Origin: Candidatus Saccharicenans sp.
Lineage (GTDB): Bacteria > Acidobacteriota > Aminicenantia > Aminicenantales > Saccharicenantaceae
Direction: 5' to 3'
Assembly: GCA_049659625.1 (NCBI GenBank)
Contig: JBASPX010000078.1
Coordinates: 4,128 to 68,127 of the forward strand
Length of the DNA: 64,000 nucleotides
Below the pieces are notes generated by a model. The model was not told the DNA's origin. It did not search any database and worked only from the letters and a program-made list of their open reading frames with translations. A program made the position numbers and the translations under genes. This document shows positions 10,401 through 57,265 of the stretch, in pieces (position 1 is the first letter of the stretch; the number at the start of each line of letters is the position of its first letter).

Positions 10401-10401
10401 C

Positions 10402-12931: not shown

Positions 12932-12935
12932 CGGT

Positions 12936-14546: not shown

Positions 14547-14562
14547 ATTTTCCTCCCTGTTT

Positions 14563-15765: not shown

Positions 15766-16086
15766 AATCGGTTTTTATCTCCGCTTTACGGCTTATATTA
15801 AATTACCTAACGCGCTTAGTCAATAATACCGGCGAAGGCCAGCCTGGCAAAAACCGCAGGAAAGAAAGCCTGAGATTTCAAGAATATCACTCCATCCGTT
15901 CTCAGCCTCACTTAATCCCCCATTTTTATCAAAGCCGGAAGTTTCATATAAGTTGCATAAAACCGGAAAATTGATTGTCTGAGCAGGTATGAAGCCATGA
16001 AGGGGAGCGTGATCAGGAGATCTCTGCTGTGTTATTTATCTGCTTTCCGGCCAGGGAAAAAATTTAGAAAAATTTCAAAAATTAGT

Positions 16087-17988: not shown

Positions 17989-18046
17989 ATTTTTTTTTGG
18001 GCTATTGATTCAATTTTTTGGATTTAGTATATTTTATTGAAGGATA

Positions 18047-20890
18047 ATGAGGAGGCATTTATTCTATCCGTTCCTTATTCTTGTCCTTATCTTTATAATC
18101 CTGGGCTTCATAAACATATCGCGGAAGTTATCGTGGAAGGAACCTTATGACGGTGTCACCTGGGTGGAAAATCCATCCGGCCTGATAGCCGCCCGGGTAG
18201 AAGAAAACAGTCCCGCCTTTCTTTCCGGGATAAAACCCGGTGACATTCTTTTTTCCATCAACGAAATGCCGATAAAGAACCGGATAGAATACACCAGGAT
18301 TATCTGGTTAATCGACCGTCTTGAACAGAAAGCTCTCTATCAGGTGGGCCGCGGCGGAACCATACTCTCCCCTTCTTTCTACCTGACAAAAAAAGGGGTA
18401 AGCTCAACCTACATTTACCTGATGCTTCTTGGCCTGGCCACCTTAGCCATCAGTCTTATGGTCTTCTTCAATACCCGGAGACAGTTCACCGGACCCTACG
18501 CCTTTTTCTATCTGGTCTCGCTTTCGCTCTATTCCTTCTACGTATTCTCACCAACCGGACAGATGGACTGGCTGGACAGCCTGTTTTACTGGCTGGATAA
18601 AGTTGCTCTGCTTTCCTTCCCGCCGCTACTCTTAAATTTTTTCTTTATCTTTCCGCAGAAAAAGAAAATCATCCACCATAAAAATAAAGTAGCACTTATC
18701 TATGTTCCCGGGCTTTTTCAGCTCCTGGCAAACATCTTCCAGCAAGTGATTTTAGATGGCAGGTTGAACGAAGCTCAGGTGCTCGCTCTCCAGAAAAATC
18801 TGGAAAAACTCGAACTTGCTCATTTCGCCGTTTTTTCAGCCCTGGCTCTGTTCATCATCATCCGCGATCTTATCGTCAACAGAAACCCATTTCTCAAAAA
18901 CCAGCTTAAGTGGATCGCCCTCGGACTGGGAGCAGGCACTTTACCTTTTGCCCTCTTTTACACCGTTCCCTTCATCGCTGACCGCCTGCCCTCAACTCCC
19001 GGTCAGCTCAGCGTTCTGCTCCAGGGATTTATTCCGATCACTCTCGCCTATTCCATCTCCCGCTACCGGTTAATGGATTTTGAGATTCTTTTCAAAAAAG
19101 GCACCACTCTGGTAATCTCCTTCGCCATGCTGGCCATGGTATATTTTCTCGTCAGCTCCCAGACGCAGCTTTTTTCTGAAAACCGGCTGAACGCCATACT
19201 CCTGGGGCTTCTGGCCATAATTCTGGGGGCCACGCTATTCACGCCTCTTTCCGAACTGGTGCAGACACTGGTAGACAGGCTTATCTACAGAAGGAGCTAT
19301 GAATACCGCCGGACGCTGCTGATGATTTCCGGCGTTCTGAACCGGGAACGGGACCTGACCAGACTCAGCAACTTTCTGGTGGAAACCATCCAGAAAGCTC
19401 TGTCAGTGAAGCAGATAGACCTGTTTTTAGCCCGCGAAGGAGTAGAAAATGAATTCTATCTGCTGAAATCCTCAGACCCGGATTTTGACCTCCAGCTTGC
19501 AACTCTTTCTCCTCCGGAAATGAATCTCCTGCAGAAGACCGAGTTTATTTCTCTGACCTTCCCGGGCGAAACGGCCGACCACAGACATCTTTTCACGCCA
19601 CTGCGGGAAAGAGGCCGTGTTCACCTTCTTCCGTTGAGGCTTGAAAACAAGCTGATGGGGTTCCTCTCCATCACCCACAAGCTGGACGAATCCTACCTTT
19701 CCGGAGAAGACCGGGAACTCCTGCGAACGATTTCCACTCCTGTGGCCCTGGCTCTGGAAAACGCCTATCTTTACAATCTGGAACTCGTCAGGTCTAGAGA
19801 ACTCCAGCGATTGAAGGAATACAGCGACAACATCATCGAAAGCCTGACCGTCGGCGTGGCCGTTATCGACCAGTCCTGCCGGGTAATCGGCTGGAACCGG
19901 GTTCTGGAAAAGCAATTCGGACTCAGCCGGGAGCAGGCGCTGAACCGTCATCTGTCAGAGGTCATCGGACGCGAGAATTTCACAGCGATTTTTCCTCCTG
20001 AAACCCAGAGCGAATATCAGCTGCTGAGCGAGCTGACCCTGACCACCGCCTCCGGTGAGAAAAAAATCTTCGATGTGGCCAGGACTCCGCTGCTCGACAA
20101 TCAGATGCAGGCTTACGGCACGATTATCGTCTTCGAAGACATAACGGAAAAAATCCGTCTGCAGCAGCAGCTGCTGACCTCGGAGAAGCTGGCTTCCATC
20201 GGTCTGCTCTCAGCCGGCGTGGCCCACGAAATCAACACCCCCTTAACCGGCATCTCCAGCTATGTTCAGATGCTTCAGAAAAAACTTACCGACGCTCACT
20301 ATGTCCAGATCCTGCAGAAGATTGAAGCTCAGACCGAAAGGGTGAACCGCATAGTGAAAAATCTTCTTAATTTTGCCAGGAATCCGGCTGACGATTATTA
20401 CCACCGGGTTGACCTGAAAGAAAGTCTGGAAGAAATTCTTTCGCTGATAGATTATCGATTAAAAAGCCTCAACATTCAGCTCGAACTCAAGCTGAATCCG
20501 GTTCTCATCTACGCCCAGAAAGAAAGACTGCAGCAGGTTTTTATTAACATCATCCTCAACGCCATCGACGCCATGCCGGATGGCGGTCGGTTGAGCATTG
20601 AATGCCAGCAGAAAGACAGTCAGGCTATCGTGAAGATCGCCGACACCGGAACCGGTATACGGCCTGAACATCTGCCGCGAATTTTTGATCCTTTCTTCAC
20701 CACCAAGGGTCTGGGCAAAGGTACAGGTCTCGGCCTGTCGATCAGCTACGCTATCGTCAAAGAACATGAAGGACAGATTCTGGTTGACAGCGTGGTGGGG
20801 AAAGGAACAACTTTTACCATTGTCCTTCCAACCACTCTTTCTGAACTCAACCGACCAAAATTACAATCAAGAGGAAGTCGCCATGAATGA
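18047..20890 (+). CDS. Multidomain sensor histidine kinase (N-terminal PDZ-like segment, polytopic membrane domain, GAF/PAS, HisKA, HATPase_c). PilS-like by context.
   Basis: 947 aa. H-box [12 protein letters not shown] and G-boxes DTGTGI / [11 protein letters not shown]. Multiple TM helices in residues about 120-400. Confidence 0.85.
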
Positions 20891-22262
20891 AAATGCCTGG
20901 ATCCATCTGATCGACGACGAACCAATTATCCACGATGTGCTCGGGCAGCTTCTGGAGGCCGAAGGTTACCGGGTAGAAATTTCCGCTTCTGGAGAGGAAG
21001 CGCTGAAAAAATTTGAGGAACATAAATTTGACTTGATCCTGCTTGACCTCCTGATGCCCGGAATGGACGGTCTGGAAGTGCTCAGAAGAATAAAAAGAAT
21101 AGACCCGGAAGCTCTGGTGATTATCATCACCGCCTACGCTTCAGTGGAATCGGCTCTGGCTGCCATAAAAATGGGCGCTTACGATTACATCCAGAAGCCT
21201 TTTAAGAACGACGAGCTCCTGATGACCATCAAACGGGCGCTCGACCACCGCCGACTGCAGGAAGAAAACATCAGGCTGCGCGACGAACTCAAGAAAAAAT
21301 TCAGTTTTTCCAACATCATCGGCAAGAGTCCGGTGATGATGAACGTATTTGAACTGATAAAGGCAGCCGCCCCGACCAGGTCAACCATCCTAATTCAGGG
21401 GGAAAGCGGCACCGGGAAGGAACTGGTGGCCCGGGCCATCCATCAGAATTCCGACCGGGCAAACCATCCGTTTGTGGTGGTCAACAGCGGTTCCCTGCCC
21501 CCCGACCTGCTGGAAAGTCATCTTTTTGGCCACGTAAAAGGAGCTTTCACCGGAGCGGTTACTGAAAAGAAAGGGTTGTTTGAAGCGGCCAACAACGGAA
21601 CGATCTTTTTTGACGAAATCTCCTCGCTCAGCCTGGAAACCCAGGTGAAGTTGCTACGGGTCATGCAGGACAAAGAATTCATGCGCCTGGGCGGCACCAG
21701 AACGATCAAAGTCGACGTCCGCATCATCGCCGCCACCAACACCGACCTGGAAGAGCTGATTGAACAGAAAGCTTTCCGTAAGGACCTTTTCTACCGGCTG
21801 AACGTTATCAAGATTGAGCTCCCGCCGCTGCGTCAGAGGAAGGAAGACATCCCTCTTCTGGTCAAACACTTCATAGACCTCTACAACGCTGAGAATCAGA
21901 AGCAGGTCGAAGGAGTGAGTGAAGATGTAATGGAAATCCTGATGGACTACGACTGGCCCGGTAACGTCCGCGAGCTGGAAAACGTCATCGAAAGAGCCGT
22001 GGTCCTCTGTAAATCGAAAATCATCACCCGTGACCTGCTGCCTCCTTTCCCCCTGAGCGGGAAAAAGGTAATCTACGAGGAACTGAACAATTCCAGTCTG
22101 AACCTCAAAGAAAAGACTGCCGAATTCCAGAAAAAGCTCATCCTGACAGCGCTGGAAAAATCCGGCGGAGTTCAGAAAAAAGCGGCGGAAATGCTGGGGT
22201 TAAAACCCACCACCCTCAATGAAATGATAAAGCGGCTGAAGATCAACGTCCGCTCGGCCTGA
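20882..22262 (+). CDS. Sigma-54-dependent response regulator (NtrC/PilR family: REC, AAA+ and Fis-type HTH)
   Basis: Start ATG at 20882 overlaps the kinase stop by 8 nt, with an AGAGGAAG RBS. Receiver Asp (DLILLDLLMPGMDG), Walker A GESGTGKE, GAFTGA motif, C-terminal HTH. Confidence 0.9.
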
Positions 22263-25119: not shown

Positions 25120-25575
25120 TCAGGGTTGCTGTTTCTGCTCTTCTTTTTCCCTGCGCTCTTTCTTAATAAACTCTTCCCAGGTGACGAAGCTGTGATAGAA
25201 CACTCCGTCCCCTTCGTCGATGCCCCGGGTAATTTCGGTGATGTGAGAGGTGGTGGCGCCAAAGGCTTCCACCGCGTAGATGACGGCTTTTTCCGGGTCG
25301 ATGTCATTGCCGCAGGTGTAAATATCCAGCGCGCCGTAGTTCTTTTCGGGCCAGGTATGGGTAGAAATATGAGATTCAGAAATCACCACCACACCACTGA
25401 CGCCGTTCGGTGGGAAACGGTTGAAGGAAATAGACCAGACGTGAGCTCCGGCTATTTCCGCTGCTTTTACCAGAATTTGCTGCACCTTCTCCACGCTGCC
25501 GATAATCTTCGGGTCGCAGCCTGAGGCTTCCACAATATAATGATGGCCGATGGTGGAGTGCTGATCCTTAGCCAT
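25120..25575 (-). CDS. speH: S-adenosylmethionine decarboxylase proenzyme (class 1b, pyruvoyl-dependent)
   Basis: 151 aa. Autoprocessing and active-site motif SESHISTHTWPE. Confidence 0.8.
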   Translation of the reverse strand: MAKDQHSTIGHHYIVEASGCDPKIIGSVEKVQQILVKAAEIAGAHVWSISFNRFPPNGVSGVVVISESHISTHTWPEKNYGALDIYTCGNDIDPEKAVIYAVEAFGATTSHITEITRGIDEGDGVFYHSFVTWEEFIKKERREKEEQKQQP

Positions 25576-25652: not shown

Positions 25653-26096
25653 TCAGACCGGCAATCTCGGGTCATATTTAACCACGTTCAACACCAGCTG
25701 GGTCACCGTACGGTCGATGTATTTCAGAGAAAGGACTTTCTTTATGAACTGGTTGAGATCCTGGCGGTCGGCAAAACAACCGATGAGCACTGAATCCCAG
25801 TCTCCGGTCACATCAAACACGGCCAGAACCCGTGGGTCTTCAGCGATCTTTTTTTGCGTTTCCAGCAATCGACCCTGGGAGATTCGCAAAACGATGACTG
25901 CCATCAATCCAAAACCGAAGTACTCAGGGTTCAGCAGCGGAATGTATCCTTTGATCGCCCCCGCTTCCTCCATTTTTCTGATGGCCTGAATAACCGCTGG
26001 AACGGAAATGCCGGTTTCCCTGGAAATTTCCCGGTAGCTTTTCCTGGCATCTTTATTCAAACAGGCAGCTATCTTTTTTTCCGAATCGGTAGCCAT
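25653..26096 (-). CDS. Lrp/AsnC family transcriptional regulator
   Basis: 147 aa. N-terminal HTH (SYREISRETGISVPAVIQAIRKMEEAGAI) and a C-terminal RAM domain. Confidence 0.85.
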   Translation of the reverse strand: MATDSEKKIAACLNKDARKSYREISRETGISVPAVIQAIRKMEEAGAIKGYIPLLNPEYFGFGLMAVIVLRISQGRLLETQKKIAEDPRVLAVFDVTGDWDSVLIGCFADRQDLNQFIKKVLSLKYIDRTVTQLVLNVVKYDPRLPV

Positions 26097-26244: not shown

Positions 26245-27642
26245 ATGCAAGAAGAAAAGGAGCCAGTCTTCGGGCTGAACACTGAGTCCGAGGTGCTGCG
26301 GGCGGTTTACGACCCCGGGCTCAGGATTGAGTTTGTCAGAATAATGTTTGCTGACATTCTCGGCCGACCGATGGATTTTTCGATTCCGGCAGCCGAGCTG
26401 GAAAGAGCTTTTGCTGAAGGAAAGGGTTTTGACGGCTCCTCAATCGAAGGGTTTGTCAGGATTGAAGAAAGCGACCTGGTCATAGTTCCGGACCCGAAAA
26501 CCTTCAGAGTTTTTCCCTGGACCTACCGCGGGTTTGACCCTGAAGTCAGCTGGCGCGAGGCCATCATGTTCGGCGACATCTATCTTCCTGATGGACGTCA
26601 TTACCCGGGCGACAGCCGTTACGTCCTCAAGAGAACTCTGGAAAAAATGCGAGAAGAATTCGGTTTCTCAGATTTCAAGTGCGGCCCGGAGATGGAGTTT
26701 TTCATTTTTCCTGCCGATGATAATCCAGCTCCTACCGATGCCGGCGGTTATTTCTTCGCCGGCCGGCACGGCGAAATCCGCAAGGAAATCCAGCTTCTCC
26801 TGAAAAAAATGGGAATCGAATCAGAATATGACCACCACGAAGTGGCTCACAGCCAGCACGAAATCGACCTCAGGTATCAGAGCGCCTTAGAGATGGCCGA
26901 CATCGTGATGCTTTTCAAGTACGTGGCGAAAAAAGTGGCCAGAATGCACAACCTCTATCTGACCTTCATGCCGAAACCGCTCAACGGACAGAATGGCAGC
27001 GGCATGCATGTCCATCAGTCGCTCTGGCGCGGGGAGCATAACGCCTTTTTTGAAAAAGACGCTCCCTACCATCTGTCGGCTGAAGCCAGGCATTACACGG
27101 CCGGCATCATTCATCATGCCCGGGAAATCTGCGCCATCTTCAGCCAGTGGGTCAATTCTTACAAAAGATTGATCGAGGGATACGAAGCTCCGGTCTACAT
27201 CGCCTGGGGGCAGAAGAACCGCTCGGCTTACATCAGAGTTCCGGAATATCAGCCAGGTAAAGAAAAAGCCACCCGGATCGAACTGAGGTCTCCTGACCCG
27301 GGATGCAACATTTACCTGGCGCTGGCCGCGATGCTGGCGGCCGGTCTCGACGGCATCAGGAGAAAAATCGAACTTCCTTCGCCGGTGGAAGAAAACATTT
27401 ACCATATGAGCAACAGCCGTCAGAAAAAAGCTGGCATCCAGGTTCTGCCGAGAAATCTGCAGGAAGCCGTAAAACTGGCAGAGAAAAGCCAGCTGGTTAA
27501 AGAAATCCTCGGTGAACACATTTTTGAAAAGTTCATTTCCAACAAGCACAAAGAAATAGAAGACTACCTGAAAAACGTCCCGGACGAATACGAAAAACAG
27601 GTCAGCCCTTATGAAATAAAAAAATACCTGCCGATGCTATAA
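26245..27642 (+). CDS. glnA: Glutamine synthetase family protein (type I-like, about 465 aa)
   Basis: GS beta-grasp N-domain and catalytic domain patterns (PDPKTFRVFPW; MPKPLNGQNGSGMHVHQSLW). Confidence 0.75.
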   Translation: MQEEKEPVFGLNTESEVLRAVYDPGLRIEFVRIMFADILGRPMDFSIPAAELERAFAEGKGFDGSSIEGFVRIEESDLVIVPDPKTFRVFPWTYRGFDPEVSWREAIMFGDIYLPDGRHYPGDSRYVLKRTLEKMREEFGFSDFKCGPEMEFFIFPADDNPAPTDAGGYFFAGRHGEIRKEIQLLLKKMGIESEYDHHEVAHSQHEIDLRYQSALEMADIVMLFKYVAKKVARMHNLYLTFMPKPLNGQNGSGMHVHQSLWRGEHNAFFEKDAPYHLSAEARHYTAGIIHHAREICAIFSQWVNSYKRLIEGYEAPVYIAWGQKNRSAYIRVPEYQPGKEKATRIELRSPDPGCNIYLALAAMLAAGLDGIRRKIELPSPVEENIYHMSNSRQKKAGIQVLPRNLQEAVKLAEKSQLVKEILGEHIFEKFISNKHKEIEDYLKNVPDEYEKQVSPYEIKKYLPML

Positions 27643-27672: not shown

Positions 27673-28779
27673 CTAATCGAGCTGAGAATAAGGAGTATGG
27701 AGGACAGTCTCCGTCAGCGCCTGGAAATTTTCCAGCGGAACGTCAAGCTGAAGATTATGAGTCGGGCTGATGATCAAACCGCCTCCCCGGCCCACCGTGC
27801 GCAATCTTTCGAGCACCTCAGCCCTTACCTCCTGAGGGCTGCCGAAAGGAAGAGTGTACTGCAGGTCAACCGTCCCCCAGAAACAGAGCCGGTCTCCGAA
27901 TTCCTTCTTCAAACGCACAGGGTCCATCGACTGCGGCTGTACAGGATTCAGCACGTCCACACCTATCTCGATAAGGTCCGGAATTACTGGATAGATGTTT
28001 CCATCCGAGTGGTAAGCTATTTTTAACCGCGGGTTAAGCCTTTTCAAATCGGCAATCAACCGGGCCATTCTCGGCTTCAGGAAACGGCGCCAGTGGGCCG
28101 GAGAAATCAGCATACGGTCCTGAGCTCCGACATCGTCACCCAGCCAGATCATATCAACTCCAATTTCTACCAGTTTTTTAGCCACCGCGGAGTGATAATA
28201 AAAAGGAATATCGAAAAGTTTCTCCACCAGTTCGGGATTAACCACCATGTCGAGAAGCGTTCTTTCGAGCCCCCTGAGAGCCCAGGCCGTTTCAAAGATG
28301 GTCGTCACCACCACTCCCACGACCCAGTATTCATCCTTGAATCGCTCCACCGTCCTCCGGGCTTCAACATAAAGTTCGGGTCGTTCGGGGTCTGGCGGCC
28401 GGTAAGAATCCAGAAGTTTTTCATCAGCGAGAGGATGCCTGACTATTTCGGTATAACGACCGCGGCCAAACCTGGTCTCGTATTCAACCACCTTCCAGCC
28501 AACTCCCCACTCATCCACATACGTAAGCCCATCCCGGCTCAATCGCTCCACAGCATAGTAAGAATTCGCCCACCCGACTGAAGTCAGCAGAAGGTCGCAG
28601 CCGACAGCTCTTTCCAGAGCGCAGGTGTTCCCCCCTCCATGATGATTATGCACATCAGGCGGAAGCCCCAGAACTTCCCTTACCCTGGCCGCAAACTCGG
28701 GAGTGAAGCTGAGCTGGAGAGGGCACCTGTCGGGCTGCTGATGATTCAGCGCCAGCCAGACTCTTTCTCTCGGTTTCAT
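27673..28779 (-). CDS. Uroporphyrinogen decarboxylase (URO-D) family protein (MtaA/CmuA-like methyltransferase-type fold)
   Basis: 368 aa, URO-D-like TIM barrel pattern. Specific function not assignable. Confidence 0.65.
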   Translation of the reverse strand: MKPRERVWLALNHQQPDRCPLQLSFTPEFAARVREVLGLPPDVHNHHGGGNTCALERAVGCDLLLTSVGWANSYYAVERLSRDGLTYVDEWGVGWKVVEYETRFGRGRYTEIVRHPLADEKLLDSYRPPDPERPELYVEARRTVERFKDEYWVVGVVVTTIFETAWALRGLERTLLDMVVNPELVEKLFDIPFYYHSAVAKKLVEIGVDMIWLGDDVGAQDRMLISPAHWRRFLKPRMARLIADLKRLNPRLKIAYHSDGNIYPVIPDLIEIGVDVLNPVQPQSMDPVRLKKEFGDRLCFWGTVDLQYTLPFGSPQEVRAEVLERLRTVGRGGGLIISPTHNLQLDVPLENFQALTETVLHTPYSQLD

Positions 28780-29187: not shown

Positions 29188-29661
29188 TTGGGTGTCCATC
29201 AAACGATCAACCTTGATATCATTCAGGAAATCGTTGAGCGGCACGGTTACAGCAAGAACAAACTGATCGCCATCCTTCAGGATATTCAAGCTGTCTATCA
29301 TTACCTGCCGGCTGAGGCGCTCAAAACCCTGTCCAGATTGCTGAAAATTCCGCTGATCGACATCATCTCGGTAGCCACTTTTTACAGAGCTTTCAGTCTG
29401 ACTCCCAAGGGACGGCATGTGGCCACTGTCTGCATGGGAACTGCCTGTCACGTGCGCGGGGCTCCCAAGATTCTGGAGGAGTTCGAGCGCCAGCTGAACA
29501 TCCGACGTGGCGAGACTACTGAAGATGGCGAATGGTCGCTGGAAACCGTGGCCTGTCTTGGTTGCTGCGCCATCGGACCGGTGGTGGTGGTCGATGGCGA
29601 TTACCATGCGCACACCACCATCCGCAAAGTTCCGACGATTCTCAACAAATACCGAAAGTGA
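29188..29661 (+). CDS. NuoE/HoxE/HndA-like [2Fe-2S] thioredoxin-fold flavoprotein-complex subunit (24 kDa subunit family). TTG start.
   Basis: 157 aa. CMGTACHVRG ... CLGCCAIGP cysteine pattern. AAGGAGG RBS 6 nt upstream of TTG. Confidence 0.8.
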   Translation: MGVHQTINLDIIQEIVERHGYSKNKLIAILQDIQAVYHYLPAEALKTLSRLLKIPLIDIISVATFYRAFSLTPKGRHVATVCMGTACHVRGAPKILEEFERQLNIRRGETTEDGEWSLETVACLGCCAIGPVVVVDGDYHAHTTIRKVPTILNKYRK

Positions 29662-29669
29662 GGCCGGCC

Positions 29670-31574
29670 ATGCCAAAAATCAAGAAATTCAAAAATGTCG
29701 AACAACTCAGAAAGGAGATTGAAAAGCAGGAAGCCAGCCGCCAGCAGGAAAAAAAGAAAGTAATCGTGGTTTCCAACGGCACCTGCGGCCAGGCCCGCGG
29801 TTCTCTCAAGGTGATCGAGGCTCTGAAAAAATCCATCCGCCAGGAAGGGCTCAAGGAAAAGGTGGCCTTGAAGATCACCGGATGTCACGGCTTCTGCGAG
29901 GCCGAACCAAACATCATCATCTATCCGGATGGAATCTTCTACCAGAAACTCGCTCCCGCCGACATCAAAACAATTGTCAAAGAAACGCTGGTGGAGGGCA
30001 GGGTGGTGGAAAAATATCTCCACCGCGACCCGCTGACCAGAGAACGCGCCTGGTACGTCCATGAAATCCCCTTTTACCAGAAGCAGAAAAGAATCATCCT
30101 TGGCGATAACATCTTCGTGGACCCGACAAGCCTGAATGATTACCTGGCCATCGGCGGATTCCGGCCTTTCCTTAAAGCCCTGACCAGGATGAAACCGGAA
30201 GAGATCATTCAGACGGTGAAAGATTCCGGGCTGAGAGGTCGGGGTGGAGCTGGCTTTCCCACCGGCATTAAATGGGAAGCCACCAGAAAAGCCAGAGGCG
30301 AACCAAAGTACATAATCTGCAACGGAGACGAGGGCGACCCCGGAGCCTACATGGACCGCAGCGTGCTCGAGGGAAATCCCTTCCGCGTGCTCGAAGGGAT
30401 GATGATCGGCGCGCTGGCCATCGGTGCGCGTGAAGGATACGTTTATGTGCGCGACGAATATCCTCTGGCCGTGCGCCATGTGACCATGGCCATCGAAAGC
30501 CTCTATCAGGCAGGCCTGCTGGGAGAAAACATCCTGGGAACCGGTTTCAGCTTCGACCTCCACCTGACCAAAGGCGCTGGAGCCTTCGTTTGCGGCGAGG
30601 AAACGGCGCTGATCGCTTCGATCGAAGGTCGGGTTGGAGAACCCCGTCAGAGGCCTCCCTTCCCGGCCCAGCGCGGTTTGTGGAACAGGCCGACCTGCAT
30701 CAACAACGTTGAGACCTGGGCCAACGTCCCGCTGATAATCCTCAACGGCGCTGATTGGTTTTCAAGCATCGGAACGAGCGGCAGCAAGGGGACAAAGATC
30801 TTTTCTCTTGTCGGCAAGATCAACAACACCGGCCTGGTAGAAGTCCCGATGGGTATAACCCTGAGAGAAATAATCTATGACATCGGAGGAGGCATTCCCG
30901 ACGGAAAAGCTTTCAAAGCCGTCCAGACCGGAGGTCCTTCGGGCGGCTGCCTGCCGGCTTCGATGCTGGATCTGCCGATTGACTACGAATCGCTGACTTC
31001 GGCCGGTTCGATCATGGGTTCTGGCGGCATGATCGTCATGGATGAGAAAACCTGCATGGTGGACGTGGCGAAATACTTCCTGAACTTCCTCAGAGATGAA
31101 AGCTGCGGCAAATGCATTTCCTGCCGCGAAGGAACCCAGAGAATGTGGGAAATCGTCAGCGACATCACCGAGGGCAAAGGAAAACCCGGGGATCTCGAAC
31201 TTCTGGAAGAACTGGCGATGGCCACGAAGGAAGCTTCGATGTGCGGACTCGGACAGACCGCGGCCAACCCGGTTCTTTCCACTCTGAGATATTTCCGCGA
31301 CGAATACGAAGCCCACATCTACGAGAAGCGCTGTCCGGCCGGTGTCTGCAAAACGCTTATCCGCTATGTGGTCATTGCGGAAAAATGCACCGGTTGCGAG
31401 GCCTGCAAGAGAGCCTGTCCCACCGGCGCCATCCAGGGTACCAGAAAAGAAGTTCACCTTATCCTCTACGACAAATGCATCAAGTGCGGCGCCTGCCTGG
31501 AAGCCTGTCACTTTGAGGCGATCGAAGCCCAGAGAGACCCGGCCATCGTCGTCGATCAGGAGGTGAAACCATGA
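29670..31574 (+). CDS. NuoF/HydB/HndC-like NAD(H)-binding FMN flavoprotein with N-terminal [2Fe-2S] thioredoxin-like domain and C-terminal 2x[4Fe-4S]
   Basis: ATG at 29670, just after the nuoE-like stop. GGAGFPTGIKWE FMN/NADH motif, SLBB domain, CxxCxxCxxxCP x2 at the C-terminus. The track ORF from 29532 is an upstream extension overlapping nuoE. Confidence 0.85.
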   Translation: MPKIKKFKNVEQLRKEIEKQEASRQQEKKKVIVVSNGTCGQARGSLKVIEALKKSIRQEGLKEKVALKITGCHGFCEAEPNIIIYPDGIFYQKLAPADIKTIVKETLVEGRVVEKYLHRDPLTRERAWYVHEIPFYQKQKRIILGDNIFVDPTSLNDYLAIGGFRPFLKALTRMKPEEIIQTVKDSGLRGRGGAGFPTGIKWEATRKARGEPKYIICNGDEGDPGAYMDRSVLEGNPFRVLEGMMIGALAIGAREGYVYVRDEYPLAVRHVTMAIESLYQAGLLGENILGTGFSFDLHLTKGAGAFVCGEETALIASIEGRVGEPRQRPPFPAQRGLWNRPTCINNVETWANVPLIILNGADWFSSIGTSGSKGTKIFSLVGKINNTGLVEVPMGITLREIIYDIGGGIPDGKAFKAVQTGGPSGGCLPASMLDLPIDYESLTSAGSIMGSGGMIVMDEKTCMVDVAKYFLNFLRDESCGKCISCREGTQRMWEIVSDITEGKGKPGDLELLEELAMATKEASMCGLGQTAANPVLSTLRYFRDEYEAHIYEKRCPAGVCKTLIRYVVIAEKCTGCEACKRACPTGAIQGTRKEVHLILYDKCIKCGACLEACHFEAIEAQRDPAIVVDQEVKP

Positions 31575-32254
31575 TCACCCTGAAAATTAACGGTGTGGAA
31601 GTCAAGGCAGAGGAAGGCTGGACCATACTCGATACGGCGAAGTTTTACGGACTGGAGATTCCCACCCTCTGCCATCATGAAGGGTTGACTCCTTACGGCG
31701 CCTGCCGCCTCTGCCTGGTGGAAATAGGAGAGGGCCCGAAAGCCAAACTGGTTTCCTCCTGCACCTACCCGGCCGAAGAAGGTCTGGTGGTGCACACCGA
31801 TACCAGAAGAGTGATTCAGGCCCGCCGGATGATGATAGAGTTGATGCTGTCTGTTGCCCCCTACTCGAAGGTCATCCAGGATCTGGCTTCTAAATTCGGC
31901 GTCACCCGGATGCGTTTCAAGATTCGCAACGAAGAATGCATCCTGTGCGGGCTGTGCGTCAGAATGTGCGCGGAACAGATGGACGGCAGGGCCATCGGCT
32001 TTCAGAAAAGGGGTTTTCAGAGGAAAATCTCCACGCCTTTTGATATCCGCTCGGAAGAATGCCGGTTGTGCGGAGGCTGCATTTACATCTGCCCGGCCTG
32101 TCAGCTCAGGTGCCAGGGACCTCAGGCCGAAACCGCCATCTGCAACGCCTGTCTGACGATGGAACCGACCTGTCTGGATTTTTACGATGAACTTCAGTGC
32201 TGGATGTACGATGCCGGTCGCTGCGGCACCTGCGTCCGGGAGAAAAAACAATGA
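31571..32254 (+). CDS. Small iron-sulfur protein resembling the N-terminus of NuoG/[FeFe]-hydrogenase HydA ([2Fe-2S] plus 2x[4Fe-4S])
   Basis: 227 aa. MITLKINGVEV...CHHEGL...GACRLCLVE (plant-type 2Fe-2S) then CILCGLCVRMC and CRLCGGCIYICP. 4-nt overlap with the upstream gene. Confidence 0.7.
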   Translation: MITLKINGVEVKAEEGWTILDTAKFYGLEIPTLCHHEGLTPYGACRLCLVEIGEGPKAKLVSSCTYPAEEGLVVHTDTRRVIQARRMMIELMLSVAPYSKVIQDLASKFGVTRMRFKIRNEECILCGLCVRMCAEQMDGRAIGFQKRGFQRKISTPFDIRSEECRLCGGCIYICPACQLRCQGPQAETAICNACLTMEPTCLDFYDELQCWMYDAGRCGTCVREKKQ

Positions 32255-32305
32255 TTTTAAGCATAAATCAAACAAATCTAACTCGAGGAAAAAGGAGGTA
32301 AAAAA

Positions 32306-33883
32306 ATGACCTTTACAAAAATCAACAGGAGCGCCGCCACTTTAACCAAAAATAGAACGGAAGGGTCAATCAGCCCCTTCAGCGGCATGTGTGTAACCTG
32401 CGTTGACGGCTGCATCGGCATGTGCGAAATCGGAAAGTCTGCCTACCGGGGAACTGAAGTCCTCTATCCGCAGCCTTTCGGGCTGATCACCGCTGCCTGC
32501 GAGAAGGATTACCCGGTAGACCTTTCGCATTTTAACATCATGGGCACGGCAGCCGGAGCCTGGGGAGTTCCGGCCGACAGCGACCTGGCCACCTTTGAGA
32601 AGGTGACCATTGAGACCGCTATCGGCCATGACAGAGGAATCAAACTCCGGGTGCCGTTTATCATCTCCGGTATGGGCTCGACCAACGTGGCCAAACAGAA
32701 CTGGGCCGGGCTGGCCGTGGGAGCCGCTATTTCCGGAACGATCCTGACCGTCGGAGAGAATGTCTGCGGTATGGATGACGAAGCAGAAATAAGAAACGGC
32801 CGGATCGTTCGCTCCCCTGATATGGAGATGAGAGTTAAGACCTTTCAGAACTGGTATGACGGATACGGAACGGTGGTGGTCCAGGCCAACGTCGAGGACA
32901 CCCGGCTCGGAGTGCATGAATACGTCATCGAAAAGCTCGGTGTGACCGCTGTCGAACTCAAATGGGGCCAGGGAGCCAAGGACATCGGCGGCGAGGTGAA
33001 AATCAAGTCGCTCAAGAAAGCTCAGGAGCTCAAACGAAGGGGTTATATCGTGCTTCCCGACCCGGAAGACCCGCTGGTGATTCAGGCCTTCGAGAAAGGA
33101 AGCTTCAAAGAATTCGAGCGCCACAGCCGTCTCGGCATGGTCGAAGAAGAAGCCTTTATGAAGAGAGTGGAAGAATTGAGAAAAGCCGGAGCTAAATACA
33201 TCTTCCTCAAAACTGGCGCCTACCGGCCGGCTGACCTGGCCAGAGCTGTGAAATATGCTTCAAAAGCCCGGATCGACCTGCTGACAGTTGACGGCGCCGG
33301 CGGCGGAACCGGCATGAGCCCCTGGAGAATGATGAACGAGTGGGGAATTCCCGGGGTGGAAATCTGGTCGCTCACTTATAAATATGCCGAACACCTGGCG
33401 AGCAAGGGAGAATACGTTCCGGACATCGCCTTCGCCGGAGGCATCCCCTTCGAAGACCAGATTTTCAAGGCACTGGCTCTCGGCGCCCCTTACACCAAGG
33501 TGGTCGGAATGGCCCGTTCTCCTCTGGCCGCGGCCATGGTTGGCAAAACCATCGGCAGCCGGATCAAAGACGGCCAGATTCCCGTTTATGTCGAAAGATT
33601 CGGCAATACCGTGGAAGAAATCTTCATCACCGCTCCGGAACTCAAAAAGAGGTTCGGCGAAAAATTTAACGAGATCCCGACCGGGGCCATCGGCGTTTAT
33701 ACCTATTTCAAGCGCCTGAGCCAGGGTTTGCGGCAGCTGATGGCTGGAGCTCGCAAGTTCTCGCTCGGATACATAACCAGAGACGATATCGGCGCTCTGA
33801 CCATGGAAGCAGCCAGGGTAAGCGGCATCAAGTACATTCAGGACATCGACCGGGAAGAGGTGGAAAAAATTCTAAACTCCTGA
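32306..33883 (+). CDS. Glutamate synthase large-subunit FMN-domain (GltB domain 2)-like oxidoreductase with N-terminal Cys cluster
   Basis: 525 aa. N-terminal CVTCVDGCIGMC. TIM-barrel FMN-domain patterns (LKWGQGAKDIGGE; LLTVDGAGGGTGMSP). Confidence 0.75.
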   Translation: MTFTKINRSAATLTKNRTEGSISPFSGMCVTCVDGCIGMCEIGKSAYRGTEVLYPQPFGLITAACEKDYPVDLSHFNIMGTAAGAWGVPADSDLATFEKVTIETAIGHDRGIKLRVPFIISGMGSTNVAKQNWAGLAVGAAISGTILTVGENVCGMDDEAEIRNGRIVRSPDMEMRVKTFQNWYDGYGTVVVQANVEDTRLGVHEYVIEKLGVTAVELKWGQGAKDIGGEVKIKSLKKAQELKRRGYIVLPDPEDPLVIQAFEKGSFKEFERHSRLGMVEEEAFMKRVEELRKAGAKYIFLKTGAYRPADLARAVKYASKARIDLLTVDGAGGGTGMSPWRMMNEWGIPGVEIWSLTYKYAEHLASKGEYVPDIAFAGGIPFEDQIFKALALGAPYTKVVGMARSPLAAAMVGKTIGSRIKDGQIPVYVERFGNTVEEIFITAPELKKRFGEKFNEIPTGAIGVYTYFKRLSQGLRQLMAGARKFSLGYITRDDIGALTMEAARVSGIKYIQDIDREEVEKILNS

Positions 33884-33913
33884 TAGGCCCCCTCACCGAT
33901 TAACCATAAGGCC

Positions 33914-33947
33914 GGGCCTGACCCGTGCGGTCAGGCCCATTTTTTTT
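33914..33947 (+). terminator. Rho-independent terminator after the gltB-like gene
   Basis: GGGCCTGACC-cgtgc-GGTCAGGCCC perfect 10-bp stem followed by ATTTTTTTT. Confidence 0.75.
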
Positions 33948-34055
33948 GGACCAGCTTCGTCTAAAATACTTTCAGCCTTCGCCTTCAGCTGTCAATTGAC
34001 TCCTGGGCATAGACTAACCCCGGTTCTTATGGTATAAGAAAATGACCTGAAAAAA

Positions 34056-42668: not shown

Positions 42669-42715
42669 ACCCTCTTTTTTTTAATAAAAAAATTTAACTT
42701 AATCAAGGAGGGCAA

Positions 42716-44716
42716 ATGGAGACTTCCAGAAAATCTCTGCCGTCTGAAGCCTACCGCGAACTCGCTCCCGGCGAAAAGTACATACCGCTGGTTCCGCCTG
42801 AAAAAATCATTCCAGAGGTTACTCCCCGTTCTGTCTTCTGGGGCCTGTTCATGGCGCTCTTCTTCACTTTTTCCATGGCTTACCTGGGACTTAAAGTTGG
42901 CACCGTGCCGGAAGCGGCCATTCCAATCGCCATACTGGCGGTGGGTATTGGCTACACCTATTCCCGGCGCAACACCATTCTGGAAAATGTCATCATCCAG
43001 TCGATCGGCGCAGCTTCCGGCGCTCTGGTGGCAGGAGCCATTTTTACCATTCCGGCTCTTTTCATCATCGGTCTACCCATCGATATCTTCAAGATTTTCC
43101 TTTCAACTTTTCTTGGCGGATGTCTGGGAATTCTTTTCCTGATTCCTTTGCGCCGTTATTTCTGTGTGGAGCAGCACGGAAAACTGCCTTTCCCGGAAGC
43201 CACGGCCACCACGGAAATTCTGGTTTCAGGTGAGGCCGGCGGAGAGCAGGCCAGGCCGCTCATTCTTGGAATAATAATTTCAGGCATTTATGAATTCCTG
43301 GCCATCGGCGTCCGCCTGTGGAATGAGGTCATCACTTTCCGCTTTCTGCCGTTTATGGACCGACTGGCAGAAAAAACCAGAATGGTTCTGAAGATTGATG
43401 CTCTTTCAGCTTTTCTCGGTCTCGGTTATGTCATCGGGTTGAGGTACAATGCCATCATCGTCGCCGGCGGTCTTCTCTCCCATTTTGGTTTTGTCCCGTT
43501 GATCTGGTTTCTCGGCCAGCATTTCTCTGAAGCGATCTACCCGGGAACAATTCCGATATCTCAGATGAACGAGGTTCAGATTTTCAGCACCTACGTTCGT
43601 TACATCGGAATCGGCGCTATTTTTATGGCCGGTGTGCTGGGCATAATCAAATCTCTGCCGATCATGGCCCGGGCTTTTTCGCTGGGCTTCAAGGAAATTC
43701 TTAAGGGCAAGGAGGGCGTTTCCGAAACCATAAGAACAGACCGCGACCTCAAGATGTCAACAATCATCGTCGGGATTCTGGTGACGGCCGTCGCCCTGTT
43801 CTTTTATTTTCTATGGATTTCCAGCCTGAAATTCGCGCTGATAGGAGTGGTTATCTGCCTGGTTCTTTCTTTTCTGTTTACCACGGTCGCAGCCACCGCC
43901 ATCGCCATCGTCGGCACCAACCCGGTTTCCGGCATGACCCTGATCACTCTAATCCTGTCCAGCGTCATCCTGATCGGGGCCGGTCTTTCCGGAACGGAAG
44001 GAATGGCTGTAGCCCTGCTGATCGGAGCGGTGGTCTGCACCGCGCTGGCAGTTTCCGGAAGCTTTATCACCGACCTGAAGATCGGCTACTGGATAGGAGC
44101 CACACCCAGGAACCAGGAAAGGTTCAAATTTGCCGGAATTCTGGTTTCTGCCCTTTCCGTCGGAGCGGCCATATTCATTCTGGATAAAGCTTTTTCATTC
44201 CAGAGCGGCGCGCTGGCTGCGCCCCAGGCCAACCTGATGGCTGCGGTTATCAAGTCTCTGATGTCCAGGGAACCGGTAGCCTGGCTGCTCTACGGAATTG
44301 GAGCCTCGATCGCCATCGTGGCTGAACTCTGCAAGATACCGCCGCTGCCTCTGGCTCTTGGCATGTATCTACCGCTCCCGCTGACCACTCCGCTGCTGGT
44401 CGGAGGTTTCCTGTCTCATCTGGTGAAAAAATCAGCGAAGGATAAAGAGCTGGCTGAAAAAAGGCATAACCGGGGGATGCTGATTTCTTCCGGGTTCATA
44501 GCCGGAGGCGCCCTGATGGGCATCGTCCTGGCTGTCCTCAAGCTGGCTAAGGTTGACCATTACTTCAGCCTGGGAATTCCGATGATCCTGGAAAACGGCA
44601 AATGGGTGGATGGCACCCCCGCTCTCTGGTTCAGCCGATATGGCGAGATCATCAGCCTGGTGGCATTTGTCCTGCTGATCGGTTTTGTCTACCTCCAGGC
44701 TAAAAAAGAAAAATAA
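42716..44716 (+). CDS. OPT-family oligopeptide transporter
   Basis: 666 aa polytopic membrane protein with an OPT-like N-terminus (...EKYIPLVPPEK...VTPRSVFWGL...). Confidence 0.8.
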   Translation: METSRKSLPSEAYRELAPGEKYIPLVPPEKIIPEVTPRSVFWGLFMALFFTFSMAYLGLKVGTVPEAAIPIAILAVGIGYTYSRRNTILENVIIQSIGAASGALVAGAIFTIPALFIIGLPIDIFKIFLSTFLGGCLGILFLIPLRRYFCVEQHGKLPFPEATATTEILVSGEAGGEQARPLILGIIISGIYEFLAIGVRLWNEVITFRFLPFMDRLAEKTRMVLKIDALSAFLGLGYVIGLRYNAIIVAGGLLSHFGFVPLIWFLGQHFSEAIYPGTIPISQMNEVQIFSTYVRYIGIGAIFMAGVLGIIKSLPIMARAFSLGFKEILKGKEGVSETIRTDRDLKMSTIIVGILVTAVALFFYFLWISSLKFALIGVVICLVLSFLFTTVAATAIAIVGTNPVSGMTLITLILSSVILIGAGLSGTEGMAVALLIGAVVCTALAVSGSFITDLKIGYWIGATPRNQERFKFAGILVSALSVGAAIFILDKAFSFQSGALAAPQANLMAAVIKSLMSREPVAWLLYGIGASIAIVAELCKIPPLPLALGMYLPLPLTTPLLVGGFLSHLVKKSAKDKELAEKRHNRGMLISSGFIAGGALMGIVLAVLKLAKVDHYFSLGIPMILENGKWVDGTPALWFSRYGEIISLVAFVLLIGFVYLQAKKEK

Positions 44717-44740
44717 AATTAACCAGGAAAGGAAGGCTAT

Positions 44741-45689
44741 CATGAAAGCAAGCAAACTTTATCAGGCAGCCGAAAAGGCAATTTTCCAGTCGCTCAAACT
44801 AAAAGCTGGAGAAAGTTTTCTGCTGGTAACAGACAAACAGAAAATGGAAATCGCTGAGGCGCTGGCCTTCTACGCTAAAAAGGCCGGAGCCGAAACTACC
44901 ACCTATCTGATGACCGAAACTTTGCGTCCGATCTCCGAACCGACAAAGCTTTTCAAGTTGCTCACGGAAAAAGCCGATGCCATCGCTTACCTGTTAGATG
45001 CCAGGATCGAAGAGAAGCCTTTCCGCGGTTTCATGGTGAGTCAGGGAATGAAATACAGCCGGATCTGCATGATGCCCGGCATCACCGTCGACATGATGGA
45101 AAGGCTGGTCAACATCGACTTCAAGAAAATGGACGAGTTCACCAGAAAAGTCATCCGGGCAATGAAGGATGCCGACCGGGTAATCGTCGAGAATGAAGAC
45201 GGGACTCACATCACCTTCAGCGTTAAGGGACGCGAATGGCACAACGACAACGGCGACATCAGCAAGAAAGGCAAACACGGAAACCTGCCGGCAGGAGAAT
45301 GCTACACCTGCCCGGTGGAAAAAACCTTTACCGGCAGGCTGGTAATCAGCCTGATTGACGACAAACTCGGCCGCGGCGAGCTGGAATTCAGAGAAGGCCG
45401 GCTGGTGCGCTGGAAGGGAGAGGGAATCGAAGCTGTGGTAAAAAACATCGGAAAGGATGAAACCGGGTTCATCATCGGCGAATTTGGCATCGGCACCAAC
45501 CCGGGCGCTCGTATCTGTCCGAATATGCTCGAAGCCGAAAAAGCTTTCGGAACCGTTCACTTTGCCATCGGCGATTCCTACGGTCTGGGCAAAAACAGGA
45601 GCAAGCATCATTACGACGCGCTGGTGGACAAAGTGACCATCATCGCCAGGGGCAAATACATAGCGAAGAACGGAAAATTTTTGATCTGA
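44741..45689 (+). CDS. Aminopeptidase-like protein (resembles M29/AmpS thermophilic metalloprotease family)
   Basis: 316 aa. The C-terminal EFGIGTNPGAR...EKAFGTVHFAIGDS resembles the M29 C-terminus. RBS GGAAAGGAAGG before the ATG at 44741. Confidence 0.5.
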
Positions 45690-47953: not shown

Positions 47954-48063
47954 TTCCTCAAGCATGTACCATAAGGGGCAGCTCCTTCCTTCCGGAAAAT
48001 TCCATTTGAAATATGCCCCCTGAAAAATATATATTTTCTCTCTTAAGCTCAACGGAGGAGCTG

Positions 48064-56363: not shown

Positions 56364-56372
56364 GGTCGCACC

Positions 56373-57194: not shown

Positions 57195-57265
57195 TTGACC
57201 GCAGAACCTGTTCTCTGCCTTTTCCGTGGGCTGCCCTGATCTGCCCGCCGGAACAGGCTGACGGC

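Follow-up and report, generated by a model that had tools for sequence, protein, structure and literature searches.

A predicted Type-2 BfuABC operon with a divergent GltB-family subunit in Candidatus Saccharicenans: a candidate glutamate-forming complex

Here, we describe a cluster of four genes at positions 29188-33883 of a 64,000-nt window from Candidatus Saccharicenans sp. (Aminicenantes, Acidobacteriota; contig JBASPX010000078.1). In this text, the window always means the whole stretch of DNA that was analyzed. On balance, the encoded sequences lead us to favor a soluble Type-2 BfuABC complex, in which the third-substrate module is a single flavin mononucleotide (FMN) and iron-sulfur (Fe-S) subunit of the GltB synthase family, which probably acts on 2-oxoglutarate plus NH3/glutamate. 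The genes encode, in order, BfuC, BfuB, a short BfuA and a 525-aa GltB-like subunit, and we infer that the four proteins form one complex. The initial annotation of the window already pointed to such a module, and its claims are taken up below where the results bear on them.

Gene layout of the operon

The initial annotation had placed four co-directional genes in this region, and the list of open reading frames (ORFs) contains all four there on the + strand. The BfuC-like (NuoE/HoxE-type) gene (29188-29661, +; 157 aa) has a TTG start that is preceded, at a distance of 7 nt, by an AGGAGG Shine-Dalgarno sequence. After a gap of 8 nt follows the BfuB-like (NuoF/HydB-type) gene (29670-31574, +), which encodes 634 aa from an internal ATG of the ORF 29532-31574. 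It overlaps by 4 nt (ATGA) with the short BfuA-like gene (31571-32254, +; 227 aa). A gap of 51 nt separates BfuA from the gene of the GltB-like catalytic subunit (32306-33883, +; 525 aa). An intrinsic terminator begins 31 nt past the stop codon of this last gene (33914-33948, +; ATTTTTTTTG). It has a 10-bp stem with 8 G-C pairs and a T-rich tail, and no terminator of similar strength was found within the four genes. Because the genes are separated by short gaps or overlap, a Shine-Dalgarno sequence precedes the first and a single strong terminator follows the last, we assign all four to one predicted operon.

BfuB and BfuC as the predicted electron-bifurcation core

The first gene was said to encode a NuoE-type [2Fe-2S] protein, and PF01257 (2Fe-2S_thioredx) matches the product over its full length (E 7e-48). 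The top NCBIfam models are HoxE and NuoE. A single [2Fe-2S] cluster, C1, is predicted from the motif CX4C...CX3C.

For BfuB, a NuoF/HydB-type protein with an extra N-terminal [2Fe-2S] and a C-terminal 2x[4Fe-4S] had been proposed, and all of these parts are recognized by Pfam. The protein matches PF01512 (Complex1_51K, 1e-45), PF10531 (SLBB, 1e-6) and PF10589 (NADH_4Fe-4S, 4e-33). The thioredoxin-like [2Fe-2S] domain (B5) lies at residues 24-105 (PF01257, E 4e-6), and the C-terminal ferredoxin domain (B3/B4) at residues ~566-621 (PF00037/PF13237, twice). Both CX2CX2CX3C motifs of the latter align to 7t2r_B, the HydB of Acetomicrobium mobile. In the same alignment, the cysteines of the N3-type [4Fe-4S] cluster B1 are all kept (C479, C482, C485 and C525), as are all five positions of the B2 site (C462, T500, H549, C555 and C560). 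The B2 ligands of A. mobile are C438, C476/Thr, H525, C531 and C536; Thr occupies the C476 position in two-thirds of the BfuBs, and the B2 His is reported to be missing from non-bifurcating homologues (PMC9304861).

In a phmmer search of the PDB, the top matches of BfuB were all B subunits of Bfu enzymes (7t2r_B, 7q4v_B, 8a6t_B, 9n5u_B, 9bov_B, 9mqx_B, 8oh5_B and 7p5h_B), with E values from 3e-246 (7t2r_B, 822 bits) to 6e-202. Non-bifurcating NuoF and FdsB came next, at ~1e-120 to 1e-114. The Bfu-type (HydABC-like) architecture suggested in the initial annotation is thereby upheld, as all cofactor motifs of the Bfu signature are present in BfuB and the closest structural matches of the protein are without exception B subunits of bifurcating enzymes.

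BfuB is defined by IPR011538, IPR019554, IPR019575 and IPR017896, and BfuC as a NuoE-type protein with IPR002023 (Schut et al. 2022, PMC9304861). BfuA is defined by at least one 2Fe-2S and one 4Fe-4S ferredoxin-type domain and by its place in the same cluster (PMC9304861). The sequence features of the BfuABC family were all found here: the BfuB domains, the B2 site, B5, B3/B4, BfuC and BfuA. We regard the BfuABC portion as a complete predicted Bfu core.

A short, WorA-like BfuA

The 227-aa protein was expected to carry a [2Fe-2S] and 2x[4Fe-4S], in agreement with its Pfam matches (Fer2_4, E 4e-17, and a Fer4_7 dicluster). Its top NCBIfam models are the N-terminal portions of group A6 [FeFe] hydrogenase, HoxU and NuoG. 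The ligands of the N-terminal [2Fe-2S] are C34, C45, C48 and C64, and the two [4Fe-4S] motifs are C123/126/129/133 and C164/167/170/174. All 12 cluster cysteines (4 + 8) are invariant in 68 orthologues. The C-terminal tail is rich in cysteines (C177, C181, C191, C194, C201, C210 and C218), and these 7 are kept in at least 65 of the 68. BfuA has neither a His-ligated cluster nor a catalytic domain.

The top PDB match of BfuA is WorA (9mqx_A, 247 aa; E 1e-37 over residues 3-206). WorA belongs to WorABCSL, the tungsten aldehyde oxidoreductase-Bfu of A. mobile (PDB 9mqx, PMC12318220), which is likewise a Type-2 enzyme with a conserved BfuBC core; its WorB (9mqx_B) matches the BfuB of the window at 3e-221. 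WorA and the BfuA of the window are both ~230-250 aa long and have A1, A2 and A4, without A3 and without the alpha/beta/alpha domain. They also share a Cys-rich C-terminal tail, with 7 conserved cysteines in the window and 4 in WorA. In WorA, a C-terminal Zn finger and an adaptor helix recruit the catalytic module (PMC12318220). The modules themselves differ, as WorABCSL uses the tungstopterin subunit WorL and the polyferredoxin WorS, whereas the window has one FMN/Fe-S TIM-barrel protein.

HydABC and NiFe-HydABCSL (7t2r, 7q4v, 8a6t, 7p5h) have cofactor sets in BfuB and BfuC that are identical to those predicted here, including the B2 His/Cys and the C-terminal ferredoxin domain. Unlike HydABC, the window encodes no H-cluster or NiFe subunit, and BfuA is cut down to the N-terminal Fe-S domain. 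Because BfuA is WorA-like and has A1, A2 and A4 only, we assign the cluster to the Type-2 Bfu enzymes, in which an extra subunit fed through BfuA would handle the third substrate.

Conservation and synteny across phyla

A scan of one genome per species gave at least 592 confirmed relatives, and the best 80 loci of these were used for all neighborhood counts (L numbers denote such loci). The nearest of the 80 are Ca. Saccharicenans metagenome-assembled genomes (MAGs) with 93-94% protein identity. Bacterial loci come from Aminicenantes, Aerophobetes, Zixibacteria, Stahlbacteria, Coatesbacteria, Latescibacterota, KSB1, Planctomycetota, Bacteroidota/Ignavibacteria, Acetothermia, Vulcanimicrobiota, Actinomycetota, Firmicutes (among them the cultured Dethiobacter alkaliphilus, L036) and Deltaproteobacteria. 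With Methanoperedens and Methanophagales (the latter being the anaerobic methanotrophic archaea of group 1, ANME-1) added, the loci represent more than 15 phyla of bacteria and two lineages of archaea.

Conserved synteny had been set beforehand as the test by which the module could fail, and the gene order proved to be conserved. When the window proteins were compared by BLAST with the ORFs of each locus, 72 of the 75 evaluable loci proved to have BfuA immediately 5' of the GltB-like gene. An upstream position was seen for BfuB in 58 of 61 evaluable loci and for BfuC in 53 of 58. The order and strand of the module are the same at all those Bfu-bearing loci. This gene arrangement is far beyond chance, and chance adjacency was rejected on synteny.

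BfuABC and the GltB-like protein could still be separate enzymes that merely lie side by side, which we consider highly improbable. The GltB-like gene does occur without Bfu genes at three loci: L056 (Thermanaeromonas) and L066 (Peptococcaceae), where a gene for an IclR-family regulator follows it, and L058 (Solincola), where a gene for a GAF-ANTAR regulator precedes it. However, order and orientation are kept in ~70 of the 80 loci, from bacteria and archaea alike, and the genes overlap or lie close together ahead of a single terminator. Moreover, BfuA itself has no catalytic domain, and nearby there is no further conserved gene that could handle the third substrate. L014 (2636-7968) apparently lacks BfuBC and was considered as a case of an alternative input module. 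It was ruled out, since its BfuA is cut to 195 aa without the 2Fe-2S domain, TraG/TrwB-like and Mrr genes lie upstream, and the locus appears to be disrupted by these mobile-element genes.

Two side observations concern the history of the module. Over window positions 30001-34000, the operon has a G+C content of 0.54-0.56, as against 0.48-0.50 in the flanks; together with the ~70% identity between bacterial and archaeal proteins, this may mean that the whole module was transferred laterally or that its composition is under strong constraint. In Methanoperedens, a second GltB-like paralogue (L045:2251-4622, -; 51% identity) is oriented divergently beside the module and adjoins a gene for a MarR-type helix-turn-helix protein with CTP-dependent riboflavin kinase (FMN synthesis).

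Two presumably interchangeable versions of the electron input

BfuB occurs in two versions. The short, ferredoxin-type BfuB is encoded in 30 loci, including the window and the other Saccharicenans genomes. In 38 loci, a long BfuB (~1050 aa) is found, in which the NuoF part is followed by Fer4_20 and Pyr_redox_2 in place of the 2x[4Fe-4S] ferredoxin domain (for example, L003:4066-7245, L029:4090-7227, L034:4000-7215 and L067:4111-7296, besides 34 further loci). Among PDB entries, the fused module is nearest to the NfnL-like NADPH domain of NfnA/StnA (9n5u_A, 1e-119; 9bov_A; 8oh5_C). NfnB/NfnL (4ylf_B, 5jca_L) are also near, down to 1e-95, and GltD of glutamate synthase (GOGAT; 6s6s_G) is weaker with 2e-65. 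Both versions are present within Aminicenantes. At L033 (417-9578), two input sets stand in tandem ahead of one pair of BfuA and GltB-like genes, in the order BfuC-NuoF::NfnL-like and then BfuC-short BfuB-second BfuA. We infer that one type of catalytic unit is served either by NADH and ferredoxin or by NADH and NADPH.

The NfnABC/Stn transhydrogenases (9n5u, 8oh5, 9bov) have the BfuBC core in common with the window. There, the NfnL-like module is attached to BfuA as the third-substrate site, whereas in the relatives of the window it is attached to BfuB and replaces the ferredoxin end. Unlike Nfn/Stn, the relatives with the NfnL-like fusion carry an additional catalytic subunit; the BfuB of the window itself is short and of the ferredoxin type.

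The catalytic subunit: family, motifs and fold

The 525-aa protein had been interpreted as the FMN/[Fe-S] domain of GltB. PF01645 (Glu_synthase) matches with E 4e-17 and 62.9 bits against a cutoff of 20.4 bits, although only residues 278-406 are covered (profile positions 185-307 of 369, a third of the profile). The protein is a very distant relative, however, and does not have the canonical 3Fe-4S cysteines. Public annotations of its homologues read 'FMN-binding glutamate synthase family protein' or 'GltB2 subunit' (Joint Genome Institute, JGI).

Motifs were mapped with a Smith-Waterman alignment to E. coli GltB in place of a short hhalign match (see below). This local alignment is collinear with residues 836-1170 of GltB and has two insertions relative to it. 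The loop K219-W-G-Q222-G-A-K225 (32960-32980, +) is invariant and aligns to K931-K937 of E. coli GltB ('IKVAQGAK'). The FMN phosphate-binding motif D329-GAGGGTGMSP339 (33290-33322, +) is also invariant. It corresponds to 'YDGGTGASP' in GltB and is the core of the hhalign and Pfam matches. In a third shared motif (GG...K..LGA), AGG...EDQIFKALALGA of the 525-aa subunit pairs with DGGLKTGVDIIKAAILGA of E. coli GltB.

In the ferredoxin-dependent glutamate synthase (Fd-GltS) of Synechocystis, Gln969, Lys972, Gln978 and Arg992 presumably line the 2-oxoglutarate site, and we take them to correspond to Q934, K937, Q943 and R957 in E. coli, as the spacing fits. From the literature on the Fd-GltS structure, we assume that the Q and K of the KxxQGAK-type loop have roles in 2-oxoglutarate binding and catalysis. 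The equivalents of Gln969 and Lys972 are Q222 and K225, both of which are invariant in 18 orthologues from different phyla.

The same 18 orthologues all contain an N-terminal Cys4 motif, C29-X2-C32-X3-C36-X3-C40 (32390-32425, +). It is found in most paralogous subfamilies, too, and in a FrhB fusion protein (P0247), and has a low predicted local distance difference test score (pLDDT) in the cofactor-free model. We predict that it binds an Fe-S cluster, of presumed type, which would take electrons from BfuA. The segment with the 3Fe-4S triad of E. coli GltB, LGCKYLRICHLNNC (CX5CX4C after beta-8), aligns to a Cys-free stretch of the 525-aa subunit.

The AlphaFold2 model of the subunit is a (beta/alpha)8 barrel (pLDDT 84.8; predicted template modeling score 0.87), with residues 1-35 and 55-68 unmodelled. 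Foldseek searches of the PDB returned FMN TIM-barrel oxidoreductases, the GltB structures among them being 7mfm_G, 1ofd_A and 1ea0_A (TM-score relative to the query, TMq, 0.48-0.49). We classify the subunit as a predicted FMN-dependent oxidoreductase of a divergent subfamily within the GltB synthase-domain family (COG0069/PF01645).

The subunit is part of a compact and strongly conserved family. More than 8000 matches were obtained in a database clustered at 90%, and the best 120 of them are 81-94% identical. The named sequences among these 120 are from Candidatus Saccharicenans, Aminicenantes/Aminicenantales or Acidobacteriota MAGs. A library clustered at 50% contained only 190 representatives at E<=1e-30, many of them fragments. 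Orthologues of the catalytic subunit in other phyla and in archaea are still 68-74% identical.

Comparison with glutamate synthases

GltBD (E. coli, Azospirillum; 1ea0, 6s6x) and Fd-GltS (1ofd) have an FMN (beta/alpha)8 synthase domain of which the subunit is predicted to carry a divergent counterpart, with the motifs KxxQGAK and GGTGxSP kept. Electron delivery to FMN through Fe-S clusters would also be alike, and relatives of the window carry a GltD/NfnL-like module for NADPH with flavin adenine dinucleotide (FAD) and 2x[4Fe-4S]. In contrast to both enzymes, the subunit has no amidotransferase, central or GXGXG domain and no 3Fe-4S triad, but a Cys4 motif instead. Electron input would be by a Bfu core in the window and is of the GltD or ferredoxin type in GltBD and Fd-GltS.

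That no glutaminase domain or GltD gene lies adjacent had been noted before, and Pfam and phmmer found none in the window. Pfam scans of 29 ORFs, including the 20 largest outside the neighborhood of the cluster, detected no GltB amidotransferase, GXGXG or GltD. Likewise, nothing was returned when every window ORF of 50 aa or more was searched by phmmer with E. coli GltB, E. coli GltD and a GltD-like domain as queries. Among the genes within +/-8 kb of the 80 related loci, neither GATase_2 (class-II) nor GXGXG nor a free GltD is recurrent. Because three defining features of GOGAT were looked for and not found, the module does not appear to be a GOGAT in the strict sense.

These searches also bear on another explanation, in which a glutamine-dependent GOGAT of the split, archaeal type would have the 525-aa protein as its redox half. 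GltB1 and GltB3 would then be encoded elsewhere, and NuoEF/BfuA would replace the GltD or ferredoxin input without energy coupling. Split GltB1/2/3 and FrhB-linked versions have been described for archaea (PMC3087415, PMC3448663), the JGI label 'GltB2 subunit' agrees with such a role, and the adjacent glnA of Aminicenantes would fit a GS-GOGAT cycle with glutamine synthetase (GS). We nevertheless judge this explanation improbable, as neither the 64-kb window nor the surroundings of the 80 loci yielded the partner genes, and BfuB keeps the full bifurcation-specific cofactor set, which goes beyond a plain NADH dehydrogenase module. As far as is known, the genes of split GOGATs normally cluster.

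The FrhB fusion mentioned above, P0247, combines 2x[4Fe-4S], FrhB_FdhB_N/C and a GltB-like part in 800 aa. It is 37% identical to the 525-aa subunit over residues 26-409 and keeps the N-terminal Cys motif. The FrhB-GltB2 architecture has been proposed as a glutamate synthase that depends on F420 (FGltS; PMC3448663), which the sources call putative and which 'remains to be proven' (PMC3448663, PMC3087415). The fusion and the subunit of the window are of the same divergent GltB2 subfamily, and in both a modular input unit would feed the catalytic domain. The input is F420H2 via FrhB in the fusion and would be NADH/ferredoxin via BfuABC in the window. FGltS is proposed to be glutamine-dependent with further subunits (PMC3448663, PMC3087415), in contrast to our reading of the window.

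Proposed electron path

In the proposed complex, NAD(H) would bind at the FMN of BfuB, and ferredoxin would dock at the C-terminal 2x[4Fe-4S] (B3/B4), the two being linked via the B2 site and cluster C1 of BfuC. Electrons from the FMN would pass over B1 to the [2Fe-2S] and then to the two [4Fe-4S] of BfuA. From A4, they would go on to the Cys4 cluster in the N-terminal part of the 525-aa subunit and then to its FMN, where the C=N (or C=O) of a 2-imino or 2-oxo acid would be reduced, or the reverse reaction would take place. The resulting enzyme would be a 'synthase-only' glutamate synthase that lacks an amidotransferase, depends on ammonia and is driven by NADH and ferredoxin. In the relatives with the NfnL/GltD-like fusion, NADH and NADPH would serve an equivalent catalytic unit.

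Neighboring genes

Upstream of the operon, Pfam and NCBIfam find glnA, an Lrp/AsnC regulator and AdoMet (S-adenosylmethionine) decarboxylase, as annotated initially. The glnA gene (26245-27642) encodes a type I glutamine synthetase (TIGR00653, 484 bits, over the cutoff); the regulator gene is at 25653-26096 (-) and the decarboxylase gene at 25120-25575 (-). A gene that the annotation did not mention lies between glnA and the operon (27673-28779, -). It encodes a protein with the uroporphyrinogen decarboxylase (URO-D) fold, an MtaA/CmuA-like methyltransferase or decarboxylase, and among the related loci it is present only in Saccharicenans (L002, L028).

All flanking ORFs of the related loci were clustered into families, and only few of these recur. 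Eleven loci, which come from several phyla, have a gene of the glutamate dehydrogenase (GDH) family (ELFV_dehydrog) directly beside the module; in 10 of the 11, this gene shares the strand of the module. It lies directly downstream of the GltB-like gene (L031, L034, L037, L044, L047 and L071) or directly upstream of BfuC (L040 and L054); L039, also with GDH upstream, has the order GDH-BfuA-GltB-like without BfuBC on a short contig, and L027 and L060 also belong to the GDH-adjacent loci. The top NCBIfam models of these neighbors are glutamate dehydrogenases. The glnA gene adjoins the module in 8 loci, every one of which carries an annotation as Aminicenantes or lies close to that group. The glutamine synthetase neighbor of the initial annotation is therefore present in the window but specific to Aminicenantes, whereas elsewhere GDH is the recurrent metabolic neighbor.

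A histidine kinase and a sigma-54 response regulator are encoded directly upstream of the module in ~15 loci. The window has a similar pair (18041-22259, +), a GAF-PAS histidine kinase with a sigma-54-dependent response regulator, at a distance of 7 kb upstream from the operon. A search of the intergenic region before the operon of the window revealed no sigma-54 promoter, and of 60 loci only 6 show the strict -24/-12 pattern. In several phyla, large PPDK_N proteins (ATP-binding domain of phosphoenolpyruvate-utilizing enzymes) are encoded directly downstream of the GltB-like gene (L052:6533-9799, L053:9582-12852, L081:9585-11972).

At 55167-57293 (-), the window encodes an EtfA whose N-terminus bears a 2x[4Fe-4S] ferredoxin domain, and an ORF of EtfB size comes next. 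A class I/II aminotransferase gene (57507-58742, +) lies beside this EtfA gene, and the locus may represent a second flavin-based electron-transfer system tied to amino-acid metabolism. Genes for the use of peptides and amino acids are densely represented in the window, at 3612-6005, 42698-44713, 44679-45686, 48010-50706, 60177-61559 and 62699-64000; they encode a DPP-IV/S9 peptidase, an OPT transporter, M29 and M14 peptidases, an amino-acid permease and a POT transporter. Such a gene content is consistent with a peptide-fermenting lifestyle. A type II secretion/type IV pilus-like cluster (8253-15774, -) encodes a secretin with tetratricopeptide repeat (TPR) and cohesin domains, a GspE/PilB ATPase and a GspF-type platform protein.

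Substrate and energetics

The most likely substrate pair is 2-oxoglutarate plus NH3 (2-iminoglutarate)/L-glutamate, to which we give nearly an even chance. Reductive amination or imine reduction coupled to bifurcation, as suggested in the initial annotation, is kept here as a hypothesis. We chose it because of the chemistry of the family, the conserved Q/K loop, the GDH and GS neighbors and the precedent of the FrhB fusion. To our knowledge, the only characterized chemistries of PF01645, those of GOGAT and N-methylglutamate synthase, interconvert glutamate and 2-iminoglutarate.

Several observations weigh against a glutamate-forming GltB-type enzyme. The kinship to GltB is remote: no NCBIfam model matched the 525-aa subunit, no GltB of the PDB was retrieved by phmmer or with an 18-sequence profile, and de novo TIM barrels were the sole PDB sequence matches with either query. 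The hhalign match to E. coli GltB comprises 80 columns at the FMN phosphate site (GltB 1015-1099) with 27% probability. The fold is not specific for GltB, because Foldseek puts other FMN TIM-barrel enzymes level with it (flavocytochrome b2, glycolate/lactate oxidases, type 2 isopentenyl diphosphate isomerase (IDI-2) and GltB all at E ~1e-10 to 1e-9). At the 2-oxoglutarate site, the equivalent of Gln978 is E230, an invariant Gln-to-Glu change, and R245, the equivalent of Arg992, is one position off and kept in 16 of 18 orthologues. The glutaminase, central and GXGXG domains are absent from the protein and the window, and none recurs at the 80 loci. An adjacent GDH can equally be read as redundancy rather than coupling. 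The sigma-54 regulators scored highest with AtoC/NtrC-like models but reached no NCBIfam cutoff, so that an assignment to NtrBC was not possible; an argument from nitrogen regulation was dropped for want of an NtrC assignment. Finally, the glutamate/2-oxoglutarate couple (~-0.1 V) is far above the characterized Bfu third substrates, and because it is near -0.1 V, confurcation of NADH and reduced ferredoxin would waste energy.

Much of this would also fit a complex with the proposed electron path and a different substrate, such as another 2-oxo, 2-hydroxy or 2-imino acid or an unrelated C=C or C=N compound. 'Glutamate synthase-like' would then be a mere label of fold and family. The partial Pfam match, the lack of any NCBIfam model or of a GltB match in the PDB even by profile, and the two insertions relative to GltB speak for such a substrate, and so does the Foldseek result, in which alpha-hydroxyacid dehydrogenases and oxidases are level with GltB. 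The subunit also has an invariant H273-S-R275, which we take to resemble the His/Arg pair of the alpha-hydroxyacid oxidase/dehydrogenase family. Membership in that family, which is defined by a PF01070 match and a catalytic His-x-x-Arg/Tyr/Lys constellation, was rejected, as the subunit has no PF01070 match at E<=0.01 (weak matches occur in two paralogues only) and the likeness is at the level of the fold only (TMq 0.42-0.47, 12-16% identity). Characterized Bfu third substrates are, in addition, of mid or low potential (PMC9304861). Against a different substrate, the KxxQGAK loop and its spacing agree with GltB, GDH and GS are the only recurrent metabolic neighbors, the FrhB fusion of the same subfamily has been proposed as a glutamate synthase (PMC3448663), and the known PF01645 chemistries given above point to glutamate. 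We consider a different substrate rather unlikely, though a serious alternative to glutamate.

For the proposed complex, the reaction may run in either direction, and electrons may be bifurcated or confurcated. High-potential third substrates (H2O2, menaquinone) have been proposed for other predicted Bfu types (PMC9304861). NADH-driven bifurcation would follow 2 NADH + Fd(ox) + 2-oxoglutarate + NH4+ -> 2 NAD+ + Fd(red) + glutamate, where Fd is ferredoxin, or the reverse of this equation; we regard it as a doubtful proposal. In the forward direction, the drop in free energy upon reduction of 2-iminoglutarate by NADH would drive the reduction of ferredoxin. In the reverse direction, reduced ferredoxin would pull the unfavorable oxidation of glutamate with NAD+ in peptide-fermenting anaerobes. 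The reverse reaction would suit the window because of its peptide-fermenting gene content (DPP-IV, OPT/POT, M14/M29, aminotransferase and the EtfA with a ferredoxin domain).

A probable new catalytic module for Bfu enzymes

The cluster was initially suspected to be of a type that is not well characterized, and the searchable open-access literature indeed contains no description of it. In the open-access text, no GltB-type module appears in the Bfu survey (PMC9304861), its supplement or later papers on Bfu structures. The cluster is predicted to encode a Bfu enzyme with a new catalytic module. In the survey, 17-18 of 57 clades were without a third substrate, and metagenomic sequences were excluded (PMC9304861). 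The module described here gives one such class of third substrate a concrete, testable identity.

With at least 592 confirmed relatives, the module is widespread, and an identity of ~70% from bacteria to archaea makes it unusually conserved. Among its hosts are lineages that make up much of the community in anoxic sediments and digesters and dominate there, for instance Aminicenantes, Zixibacteria, Planctomycetota, Bacteroidota and ANME. The swap of a ferredoxin domain for an NfnL module on one core offers a ready comparison for the mechanism of Bfu bifurcation.

If the substrate is glutamate/2-oxoglutarate, many metabolic reconstructions that name these genes 'gltB' or 'nuoEF/hoxEFU' mis-state ammonia assimilation or amino-acid breakdown, and with it the balance of NADH, NADPH and ferredoxin. 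If bifurcation takes place as outlined above, a Bfu core would be working with a high-potential third substrate in nitrogen and amino-acid metabolism, and the complex would be an energy-coupling node that dozens of uncultivated phyla and the ANME/Methanoperedens archaea possess.

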